This document shows positions 9,793 to 12,193 of a stretch of 64,000 bases of DNA, one piece after another. The stretch is from a virus (lineage: Duplodnaviria; Heunggongvirae; Uroviricota; Caudoviricetes). The DNA is taken from the IMG/VR virus record IMGVR_UViG_2565956721_000002; one strand, given 5' to 3'. A model generated the notes under the pieces. It was given only the letters and a program-made list of their open reading frames with translations, had not been told where the DNA came from and did no database searches. The translations under genes and the position numbers were made by a program. The first letter of the stretch is position 1, and the number at the start of each line of letters is the position of its first letter.

Positions 9793-9945
9793 TGAAACCT
9801 CGTAGAATCTGGTGTGTTACCCGATTCTACGAGTTGTCATTTGTTACCGGTCAGTCTACACATTTCAGATGCTGCGTTAAAAAACCCAAGTACTTCAAGT
9901 AGCACATCGTCATCAACACCCAGCCCCAAGATACGGTGATAAAAT

Positions 9946-10980
9946 TCAAGCCTTAAGAGGCTTTGTGTATGTTCGTGTAATCCATCCAGTAATAAACTCG
10001 TCCCCTGATTTAACCTGCACGAAAAGCCATTGGCGATCTTTTTTATCTAAAACAGCCACTATAGTATTTTTGCCAATGCATTCAATCACCTCACTATTTA
10101 TAGAAGGACTGACGTGTAATCTTACGTTCTCACCAGTTATAAAACGAAAACCATTGAGATCTTCCCAACTAATTTCTTTGTTTTCTTTAATTAATTGTTG
10201 TTTTGATATTGGTTTATCCTCAAACAGAGATATAAAATATGATTCTGCCTTGTGTATTCCCAGCAAGGTTTTCTCTTTTCCGTAATCAATAAAAGCACCA
10301 AACACAACTTGAGAAAATATAACCATTAGTAACCATTGCAGTGGATAAGGAAGCTCTTTAAATGAATCAACAAACTTTGAGCTAGGTTTATTTAATCCTT
10401 TATTTTGAACATTACTTTTGGTGTGTGATGTTTCAGTAGCACCTTCAGCATAAGCCTGCGCAATAGATGAAATCCCCTGCTCTATTATTTGATGTAATGA
10501 AGCATTTCTTGTTCTAGCATAGTGATCTAGTACTTTCTTTATGTCTTGGCTTACATCTATTTTATAACTTGCACTTTGTTGTAATTCTTTAAGTATCGCT
10601 TGCATGTTATTTAAACCAGCTTGCTTATTAAGCACCTCAAGCTGTTTTCGTAATGGCATAGCTATTTCGGCCTGTTTCCTTAGCATTTGAATATATCTAT
10701 TTGCATCATGAGGGAAAAGAGCCTGAGTCTGTTTCTGTAAAATCGCGATATGTTCACGATACTTGCTGCCTATTCCAGCCAAGTTCGGTATACTAGCCAA
10801 TTGTTTTCGAAGAGAGTTACTAATTACAGCTTGTCTATTCAATCTTGGCATATTTTGAAAAGAATGTTTTTCTATTCCTAATTGTTTTTGCAAGATCGCT
10901 ACGTGATCTTTGTATGATGGAATGAGCACTGACTGTTTATACAGCAACTTCAACTCATTAGAATTAGTAATTTTTGTCAT
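9946..10980 (-). CDS. membrane-anchored protein with N-terminal internal repeats and C-terminal SH3b-like domain (344 aa)
   Basis: Repeated KYR(D/E)H(V/I)AILQKQ segments, one hydrophobic helix (LQWLLMVIFSQVVFGAFI), C-terminal SH3b-like stretch; AT-rich DNA. Confidence 0.45.
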   Translation of the reverse strand: MTKITNSNELKLLYKQSVLIPSYKDHVAILQKQLGIEKHSFQNMPRLNRQAVISNSLRKQLASIPNLAGIGSKYREHIAILQKQTQALFPHDANRYIQMLRKQAEIAMPLRKQLEVLNKQAGLNNMQAILKELQQSASYKIDVSQDIKKVLDHYARTRNASLHQIIEQGISSIAQAYAEGATETSHTKSNVQNKGLNKPSSKFVDSFKELPYPLQWLLMVIFSQVVFGAFIDYGKEKTLLGIHKAESYFISLFEDKPISKQQLIKENKEISWEDLNGFRFITGENVRLHVSPSINSEVIECIGKNTIVAVLDKKDRQWLFVQVKSGDEFITGWITRTYTKPLKA

Positions 10981-11054
10981 ATTATTCCATTTCTATAATA
11001 GAATATTACGCAACCAATGTTTTATTGATTGCGTTAATCTTTAACACAGAAAGA

Positions 11055-11531
11055 TCATTTGCCTCGTTTAATACATCCATCCATTTTGGCTTGTTGATAC
11101 AACTTACTTAGCCCAGAAAGAGGGAATGTAGCAATTTTTTCATTATCAACATAAGCATCAATCATATTAGCATTTGAATCTGCTGCATCTTGCCAAAAGG
11201 CATACCACCAAGAATCTCCAACCATTGATCCAAGATTTCTAAAAGGATATTGATCACCATCTATAGTTAATACTATTTTATTCTTGTCAGCATTATACTC
11301 TTTTTTATTATTCGACGAACTTAGCAACAAGCCTAAACTACCTGCACTATCTGGTGAACCATACATGAATCCCATATCACATAAAAAACTTATCTTATCA
11401 CCATTATGATTATGGATTGTATATTCTCTCCCCCCTCTCTCTTCAATTACATTCCATTGTAGAGGATCAATTTTTGCAAATGTTCCTGCTGAAACTAACG
11501 ATACAAATAATAAAAACCATCTCATATTCAT
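11055..11531 (-). CDS. secreted protein with signal peptide (158 aa)
   Basis: N-terminus MNMRWFLLFVSLVSAGTFA is a typical Sec signal peptide; AT-rich. Confidence 0.45.
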   Translation of the reverse strand: MNMRWFLLFVSLVSAGTFAKIDPLQWNVIEERGGREYTIHNHNGDKISFLCDMGFMYGSPDSAGSLGLLLSSSNNKKEYNADKNKIVLTIDGDQYPFRNLGSMVGDSWWYAFWQDAADSNANMIDAYVDNEKIATFPLSGLSKLYQQAKMDGCIKRGK

Positions 11532-11553
11532 TCTTTTCGCTTCTTATCTGTAA

Positions 11554-11904
11554 TTATTCTGCAATATCATTTGCCCATTGCACGGCAGCAAAATGAGTAC
11601 CCAAACCACTCAGGAAAGCAATTACCCCCAAAACAATACTTGCTGCTGTTGATTCAAACAAAGTACCAATACTATAGCCAATAGCTCCCCATACTAAGCT
11701 AAATACAATCATCAATGGTATTGCTAGAAATTTTATTCTTAAACTAAAAATCAGTCCAAGAAAAGAACCGCCAAAGGCCCACCATGATTTAGACATTAAA
11801 CCTATCAGTATTGACAGAATTCCTATTTCAATAAAGAGAATATTAGATTGCTCTTCATTGAATTTCGCATTTGTTACACCTTTACGAACATGTTCAGATG
11901 ACAT
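11554..11904 (-). CDS. small integral membrane protein (116 aa)
   Basis: Three predicted hydrophobic helices; first gene of the AT-rich cassette. Confidence 0.4.
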   Translation of the reverse strand: MSSEHVRKGVTNAKFNEEQSNILFIEIGILSILIGLMSKSWWAFGGSFLGLIFSLRIKFLAIPLMIVFSLVWGAIGYSIGTLFESTAASIVLGVIAFLSGLGTHFAAVQWANDIAE

Positions 11905-12193
11905 GATTAACTATCTCCTGCCACAGATAAAACGCCTTAAAATAACATTTTGTAGCATAAAGTTTCACCATGCAATGGTCAAAATCTTTGACCCATATCA
12001 ATTAAACTCATACATTTTAGTTACCAGAGAAATAATTTACATGGTTGCAAGTTGCTCTAATTATTTTATTTTTTTAGCTTCATATGCTACATTAACTTGC
12101 TTGCGTGCTAATGCATTTTCGGTTTATCCTAAACAGGCATCTTAGTAAAACGGATGCCGGGATTGGAACCCCGGATAATGCAAAAGGCGACAT

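Follow-up and report, generated by a model that had tools for sequence, protein, structure and literature searches.

A low-GC cassette of predicted envelope proteins occupies the sim slot of a P1-like phage-plasmid

Which genes does a P1-like phage-plasmid carry at the position where phage P1 keeps its superimmunity (sim) genes, and what might they do there? We explored this question in a 64,000-nucleotide stretch of a P1-like phage-plasmid (IMG/VR record IMGVR_UViG_2565956721_000002), which we call the window. At the sim position it holds a cassette of three open reading frames (ORFs), all on the minus strand, coding for a membrane protein of 116 amino acids (aa) termed M116 (11554-11904), a secreted 158-aa protein (11055-11531) and a 344-aa protein ending in an SH3-like domain, here the SH3 protein (9946-10980). 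Measured in 400-bp windows, GC content is 0.315-0.383 over positions ~9800-12199 and 0.45-0.51 on either side, with 0.473 for the entire 64,000 nucleotides. Gene by gene it amounts to 0.335-0.353 in the cassette versus 0.47-0.49 in pmgC, tub, pmgB, ant1 and kilA, and at third codon positions (GC3) the contrast widens to 0.21-0.27 versus 0.47-0.53 for the same genes.

The slot is bounded by LPsit/pmgC on one side and by the C1 operator Oc4 with c4-icd-ant on the other, and is transcribed divergently from immI. Its flanks share 97-98% identity with P1, P7 and related Punavirus genomes, in which the same interval is annotated as simC-simB-simA (P1) or upf50.0-upf50.5 (P7). Homology to P1 and P7 stops on the left at 9845-9847, 3-5 bp beyond LPsit, and returns on the right only at 12429-12432. 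LPsit itself, the late promoter of the pmgC-tub-pmgB-sit operon (9824-9842, minus strand), is present as an exact match (AAATGACAACTCGTAGAAT), is marked in the P1 annotation and forms the left edge of the replaced segment. Because the right part of this segment consists of an operator-like site, an isrK-type leader and C4 RNA rather than cargo, the cargo proper spans ~9846-12136. A preliminary description of the sequence had recognized an AT-rich three-gene cassette of ~2.3 kb at the sim position, divergent from immI, and had suggested that it may be a replacement cargo; composition, flanks, orientation and annotations bear this out. Homology of all three proteins to SimA, SimB and SimC, which that description had set against its own proposal, was sought by blastp, and the best E values of 3.4-3.5 are noise; against P7 Upf50.0 and Upf50.5 all E values exceed 1. 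The same flanks and orientation, together with the lack of detectable homology to SimA/B/C or Upf50.0/50.5, argue for a true non-homologous replacement of sim.

The cassette is accessory envelope cargo in a known P1 hotspot and as such not surprising in kind. The simC-simB-simA genes are already listed among eight highly variable, low-GC regions of P1-like phage-plasmids (PMC9603915), and the window cassette fits variable accessory region 4 of these elements by its sim position, its low GC content and its difference among otherwise conserved relatives. Our literature search found no paper describing the gene content of this allele. What is new is this content, the recurring YfjT-family core described below, the recognition of P1 SimA as a stub and an SH3 family of phage-plasmids.

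To place the allele among its relatives, ORFs were classified at 40 loci (L numbers) and in annotated records, each allele being read from immI to pmgC. The window represents type A, with M116, a 158-aa protein of the YfjT family (YfjT-158) and an SH3 protein of 344 or 355 aa. Type B (e.g. L008) keeps M116 and YfjT-158 and adds a DUF4760 membrane protein on the other strand. In type C (e.g. L009) a full-length SimA of 163-172 aa precedes a 168-aa YfjT protein and an SH3 protein of 325, 357 or 394 aa; type C' (e.g. L031) is organized likewise, with a leftover 3' fragment of the YfjT-158 gene and DUF4760 in addition. Type D of Salmonella (L018/L019) combines a 222-aa SimA with the M116 homologue M117 and a 164-aa YfjT protein, and type E a full-length SimA with a variant YfjT-158' in phage Ro157c2YLVW, Cronobacter phage JK004 and the GC-rich, diverged element L014. 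P1 carries a 52-aa SimA stub followed by SimB and SimC, and P7 carries Upf50.5 and Upf50.0. Apart from the P1 and P7 types, every examined allele has a YfjT-family gene, those of the isolated phages Ro157c2YLVW and JK004 among them, and as far as these sequences go such a gene is the constant core of the slot outside those two types. The YfjT lineages in the slot are mutually only 28-39% identical, yet occupy the same place.

How was such a cassette put together? Module junctions fall in intergenic DNA, and homology to type B extends only from window position 11061 rightwards, beside the stop codon of the 158-aa gene. The SH3 gene directly follows a YfjT-family gene in 22 of 22 distinct contigs with a visible upstream gene, with a 14-nt overlap between them in type C. 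Distant SH3 genes of Citrobacter, Salmonella and Yersinia elements, 40% identical, stand alone at other places as islands of low GC content, and neither a YfjT-family nor an M116 gene lies within 5 kb of them. Since these distant homologues stand solo on other phage-plasmids, the SH3 gene can be regarded as an autonomous module; they also weaken an obligatory coupling of YfjT and SH3, which we had considered. Read from this catalogue of alleles, the three cassette genes are independently shuffled modules and not one fixed cassette. In some type-C plasmids (L009 3543-3968; L031/L046) truncated pieces of the YfjT-158 gene persist downstream of SH3, scars that one allele left when it was recombined into another. 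An alternative pmgC-proximal occupant is the DUF4760 multi-transmembrane protein of 297-333 aa, encoded on the opposite strand (L008 2550-3443 and L009 2481-3443, both plus), for which PADLOC gave no match.

The comparison also changes the picture of the classical locus. P1 SimA (52 aa; L001 3629-3787) is 90% identical to the first 50 residues of a 172-aa protein, which makes the P1 locus itself recombinant. Longer, secreted SimA forms of 163-222 aa occur at L009 5620-6138, L019 3234-3902, L054 1802-2449 and L055 2401-2970, and full-length SimA stands ahead of the YfjT-family gene in Ro157c2YLVW, JK004 and many P1-like plasmids. P1 SimA is accordingly the N-terminal stub of this secreted protein, whose normal place is ahead of the YfjT gene. 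Full-length SimA has a weak similarity to PTPlike_phytase (E 1.6e-5, below the gathering score).

The type-A cassette is a plasmid-borne feature of natural isolates. Its DNA is absent from all 50,697 deposited phage records, and the full cassette is present at 98-100% identity in 27 PLSDB plasmids and 37 complete E. coli genomes. Some part of it was found in 113 of 5426 complete E. coli genomes, with 114 of 115 such places being plasmid-borne. Among the 509 pmgC-positive plasmids in PLSDB, 265 carry P1-type sim DNA (nearly complete in 137), 168 the P7 type and 107 some part of the cassette. The carriers come from blood, urine, stool and animal isolates.

Long ORFs arise by chance in AT-rich DNA and the cassette genes have no known function, so one may ask whether they are mis-called or non-functional hitch-hikers. 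The ratio of non-synonymous to synonymous substitution rates (dN/dS) between alleles is 0.07 for M116 against type B (0.08 against its Salmonella homologue at 72% amino acid identity), 0.24 for the 158-aa gene and 0.21 for the C-terminal part of the SH3 gene, and this purifying selection on all three argues for real genes. Homologues at 28-72% amino acid identity are kept in the same slot of diverged phages, PHROG families exist for all three proteins, and the 158-aa protein yields a confident structural model. These selection and conservation data effectively refute the idea of junk DNA.

The N-terminus of the 158-aa protein resembles a signal peptide (...SAGTFA|KIDP), which makes it a secreted and presumably periplasmic protein, and in the family alignment C51 and W109 are invariant and C153 is kept in at least 90% of the sequences. 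A profile built from this protein and 13 relatives, which came from an exhaustive search, matches E. coli K-12 YfjT at E 5.5e-36, and the direct blastp comparison gives 25% identity at E 6e-6. Its relative P0049, 97% identical, carries the Pfam family PF27224, which bears the name YfjT, and the Prokaryotic Genome Annotation Pipeline (PGAP) labels WP_001057313, from a locus 99.7% identical, as 'YfjT/YkfB family phage-associated protein'. The Pfam and NCBIfam copies that were searched contain no PF27224 model, and the assignment draws on the profile, P0049 and the PGAP name; by these sequence criteria the protein is a member of the YfjT/YkfB family. The AlphaFold2 (AF2) model predicts a mixed beta/alpha structure with a predicted local distance difference test score (pLDDT) of 85.7, and neither model nor alignment contains a lipobox, beta-barrel or autotransporter features. 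Searches of the Protein Data Bank (PDB) by sequence and profile with the YfjT family found no match, and a structure search of BFVD yielded nothing beyond phage homologues lacking annotation and a single 'putative adhesin' label.

The YfjT family is small, with ~15 clusters at 50% identity, and ranges over P1-like phages, jumbo phages of Serratia and Pectobacterium, and chromosomes of Aeromonas, Enterobacter and Serratia. The jumbo phages are myoviruses of ~275 kb (records H96-H105, e.g. Moabite, 2050HW and Yaphecito) whose YfjT-family proteins are 25-26% identical; the label 'adhesin' on some of them is an unverified annotation. The K-12 proteins YfjT and YkfB share with the 158-aa protein a length of ~150 aa, a signal peptide and two conserved cysteines, and in CP4-57 yfjT follows genes for a small membrane protein and an inner-membrane lipoprotein (ypjK-yfjS-yfjT). 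The likeness has its bounds, as the identity to YfjT is only 25%, M116 is not similar to YpjK and the cassette lacks a lipoprotein gene. YfjT and YkfB are listed among the uncharacterised genes of the E. coli y-ome (PMC11551758), so family membership gives no function.

M116, the first gene of the cassette, codes for a predicted small polytopic inner-membrane protein. Hydropathy analysis reveals four hydrophobic segments (~22-38, 42-54, 58-82 and 86-107), the second of which is short, so that three or four transmembrane (TM) helices are expected. The protein matches phrog_15014, a family of unknown function, at E 1e-75 and no other family, and PDB searches by sequence and profile gave no match. 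Its homologues come from Salmonella P1-like elements, at 72% identity, and also from Vibrio and metagenomes; in L008 and L019, too, the M116 gene is followed by one of the YfjT family. One homologue, on a contig of Vibrio metschnikovii (L005 950-3060), lies ~300 bp downstream of a gene for a 482-aa AAA_15/AAA_21 ATPase, a protein type frequent among defence systems. A functional tie of M116 to its neighbours beyond P1-like elements was considered and set aside, as these include a DUF4431 protein and an AAA ATPase unrelated to the YfjT family, in inconsistent contexts.

The SH3 protein (phrog_7086) is predicted to be bitopic, with helical repeats from residue 1 to ~205, a single hydrophobic helix at 213-234, a conserved linker and an SH3b domain at ~285-338. 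Pfam SH3_3 (PF08239) matches residues 285-338 at E 1.1e-5 and 26.0 bits, just under the gathering score of 27; the same domain is precomputed on nearly all homologues, and RefSeq names the protein 'SH3 domain-containing'. The internal repeat Y[KR][DE]H[VI]AILQKQ is present twice (23-33 and 74-84), with none of 500 shuffles reaching its score, and seven [LIM]x[KR]Q motifs fall within residues 30-120. The two halves of the protein differ in their evolution: the N-terminal part varies among homologues in repeat number and sequence, giving lengths of 318-481 aa, and has a dN/dS of 0.49, whereas all 28 invariant columns over 29 aligned homologues lie inside residues 239-340. The AF2 model of the full-length protein from this 29-sequence alignment reaches a pLDDT of only 38, with five beta-strands at 298-341 below 50. 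The C-terminal part found no match in PDB searches by sequence and profile, tblastn against deposited phages gave no match to the protein, and a weak amidase match (phrog_1794) has an E value of 0.009. Its 48 relatives come almost only from contigs of ~90-100 kb in Escherichia, Citrobacter, Salmonella, Pseudocitrobacter and Yersinia, and the gene is a phage-plasmid-restricted moron, that is, an accessory gene dispensable for phage growth. With an N-terminal region, one TM helix and a wall-binding domain at the C-terminus, the predicted layout is reminiscent of bitopic peptidoglycan-binding proteins of the SH3b/SPOR type, from which the long, variable and phage-plasmid-specific repeats set it apart.

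Signal peptide and hydropathy features support an envelope localization of the predicted cassette products, in line with the preliminary description. Its account of a signal peptide, internal repeats, one TM helix and an SH3b-like end agrees with our analysis, and the three TM helices it gave for the 116-aa protein become three or four. The property extends to the slot as a whole, since every family found there, namely SimA, SimB, SimC, Upf50.0, Upf50.5, YfjT, M116, SH3 and DUF4760, carries an export signal, a lipobox or TM helices.

Could these genes be expressed in the lysogen? Upstream of M116 lies an AT-rich divergent regulatory region (11905-12136) with a candidate sigma-70 promoter, TTGACC-17-TATGCT (11982-11954, minus strand), whose 9 of 12 matches in the promoter scan are at chance level in AT-rich DNA. 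The region also holds a C1-operator-like site, GTTGCTCTAATTATTTT (12051-12067, plus strand), with three mismatches to the consensus; its core TGCTCTAAT aligns with Oc4 of P1 and P7 and is a small conserved island in all five aligned alleles, between variable cargo and variable immI leader. Ten operator-like sites were found in the window versus 0.25 expected by chance. As this one is located ~70 bp upstream of the candidate promoter, control of the cassette by C1 is doubtful. A search for an Lpa-type late promoter driving the cassette found only LPsit, which lies downstream, and none facing the genes. Within the cassette, the 158-aa and SH3 genes are separated by a 74-nt spacer with a hairpin at a module junction (11008-11034, minus strand; 11 pairs, four of them G-C, tail AATATTCTAT), which would make a weak terminator, as it lacks a U-run behind it. 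A terminator was also sought in the stretch from the SH3 stop codon to LPsit and not found, the sequence there folding no better than its shuffled versions (z = 0.01). Rather than from the late promoter, the genes would most likely be transcribed from promoters of host type in the AT-rich region next to the C1 operator, in which case the cassette proteins would be made in the lysogen; from this arrangement we infer that lysogenic expression is plausible.

What the cassette does is best explained, tentatively and with somewhat less than even confidence, as a Sim-like envelope block on superinfecting phages, achieved with unrelated proteins. Four considerations lead to this reading: where the slot lies, the fact that all of its cargo is targeted to the envelope, its dispensability and the one tested precedent, P1 Sim. 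SimC is an exported P1 protein that confers exclusion, and within the P1 annotation and the literature as covered by PMC10695390 Sim superimmunity is the only demonstrated function of the slot. A CRISPR interference (CRISPRi) map found the P1 sim genes dispensable for lytic growth and pmgC, tub, pmgB and sit essential (PMC10695390). The cassette shares with P1 sim the identical slot and orientation, low GC content, non-essential accessory status and export signals on all products, and differs from it in gene number, protein sizes and unrelated sequences; exclusion has been demonstrated for P1 Sim only. The P7/SJ46/RCS47 allele is a second and common example of sim being replaced in the same slot by envelope-targeted proteins, in this case the lipoprotein Upf50.5 and the DUF5384 protein Upf50.0, the only slot protein that DUF5384 matches; with two genes, one for a lipoprotein, it is unrelated to the cassette. 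Upf50.5 (L002 2917-3438) is weakly similar to TraT (E 7e-5; 23 bits versus a gathering score of 31), a surface-exclusion lipoprotein that also confers complement resistance, and this similarity counts in favour of exclusion.

In mechanistic terms, three low-GC modules for envelope proteins, each circulating separately, would have been joined at gene boundaries by recombination to form the cassette, and its products would act in the inner membrane or periplasm to keep out the DNA of superinfecting phages. As core effector in the periplasm, the YfjT-family protein would usually have M116 or full-length SimA as its upstream partner, and the SH3 protein would be an optional, autonomous add-on anchored to the cell wall, its repeat region most likely cytoplasmic and its SH3b domain most likely periplasmic and peptidoglycan-binding. 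T4 Imm, Sp and other prophage exclusion proteins act at the inner membrane or in the periplasm. Like them, the cassette would rely on small membrane or periplasmic proteins that block DNA transfer or the action of the tail on peptidoglycan; this comparison is a mechanistic analogy only, as we found no sequence or fold relationship between the cassette proteins and exclusion proteins of the Imm/Sp type.

Several observations weigh against exclusion. No homology, fold or defence-database match supports it, and the proposed function derives from position and localization. Beyond the borderline SH3_3 hit, the cassette proteins have no functional match in Pfam or NCBIfam, and in PADLOC-DB v2 they have none at E <= 1; seven alternative slot proteins likewise have none at E <= 0.1. 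The presence of YfjT relatives in lytic jumbo phages, and on chromosomes of Aeromonas, Enterobacter and Serratia, is no specific pointer to exclusion. M116 homologues beyond P1-like elements are not always beside a YfjT-family gene and have inconsistent neighbours, and the solo distant SH3 genes mean that the three cassette genes need not act together. Sigma-70-like sites are not enriched, with eight found versus 9.7 expected. H-NS typically silences such AT-rich DNA, which weakens the case for cassette expression in the lysogen.

These points give room to other explanations. The genes might serve lysogenic conversion, altering the surface or periplasm to the benefit of the host in stress tolerance, serum or complement resistance, or adhesion and colonization, as lambda Bor and Lom or TraT do. 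YfjT-family genes reside in cryptic islands with no intact phage around them, CP4-57 and, for ykfB, CP4-6 (PMC11551758), as well as on Aeromonas chromosomes, and the sources of the carriers, the 'adhesin' label and the weak likeness of Upf50.5 to TraT, with its complement resistance, point in the same direction. Yet that label is unverified, the predicted site of the 158-aa protein is the periplasm and not the cell surface, and the sole tested function in the slot is anti-phage; we regard a host-fitness role as doubtful, if well worth keeping in mind. An abortive infection system, in which the SH3 protein senses a phage component through its variable repeats and disrupts the membrane by its TM helix while M116 and the YfjT protein form a separate effector pair, would account for the contrast between a variable N-terminal part and a near-invariant C-terminal part, for the single TM helix and for the spread of the gene as an autonomous low-GC moron over several phage-plasmid backbones. 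Defence systems have also been reported in other regions of P1-like elements (bioRxiv 10.1101/2025.09.12.675607). The repeat variability may also reflect a spacer under low constraint. The AF2 model is uninformative, and with neither a PADLOC match nor an enzymatic or NTPase domain in the Pfam search we consider abortive infection unlikely.

Two further ideas concern the phage itself and its competitors. The cassette is situated immediately upstream of the essential tail and injection operon pmgC-tub-pmgB-sit, in the same orientation, and SH3b domains are frequent in phage lysins, to which the weak amidase match may be added; a wall-binding protein with periplasmic partners could then aid or time Sit-mediated injection, tail assembly or lysis. 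The genes are however upstream of LPsit, no late promoter faces them and they encode no catalytic domain, the P1 slot genes are dispensable, and P1, P7, Ro157c2YLVW and JK004 are viable with entirely different slot content, all of which makes a helper role in the phage's own cycle very improbable. A toxin-immunity or bacteriocin function was dropped, as no toxin-like or enzymatic domain is present.

Returning to envelope exclusion, a bolder scenario can be drawn from the slot catalogue. YfjT-family proteins, usually accompanied by full-length SimA or M116, might be the original and most widespread envelope exclusion determinants of P1-like phages and play the same role in the CP4-type islands of K-12. 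P1 SimB and SimC would then be a later replacement that truncated simA, and the SH3 protein a new wall-anchored exclusion or abortive factor whose cytoplasmic repeats set phage recognition. Taken jointly, we hold this chain of events to be rather improbable.

The neighbourhood of the slot varies as well. The immI leader at 12137-12215 is an isrK-type RNA (RF01394, 58 bits) with a terminator-like hairpin and T-run at 12194-12210, and a C4 antisense RNA follows at 12260-12347; window positions 12136-12550 are 87.7% identical to phage D6. P1, P7 and type-C plasmids have a c4-a1b1 element (RF03163) in place of the isrK-type leader, which accompanies the alleles with M116 and YfjT-158 (window, L008) and may reflect a different immI specificity. 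Further along, ant1 (12620-14029, plus strand) codes for 469 aa in the window versus 345-363 aa in P1 and many relatives, a long form of 462-469 aa being found in some.

P1 has long served as a model phage, and phage-plasmids of its kind are common among E. coli and Salmonella from clinical sources. The textbook sim locus now becomes one of several alleles in a slot whose products are all targeted to the envelope, with a YfjT-family protein as its recurring core. Should the cassette have no phage phenotype, it would be an ordinary moron of unknown benefit. If it does act in exclusion, its products would be new superinfection-exclusion proteins and would provide a first function for the E. coli y-ome genes yfjT and ykfB. 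Exclusion of this kind could also explain a possible influence of resident P1-like plasmids on P1 transduction, or on phage therapy, in natural isolates.

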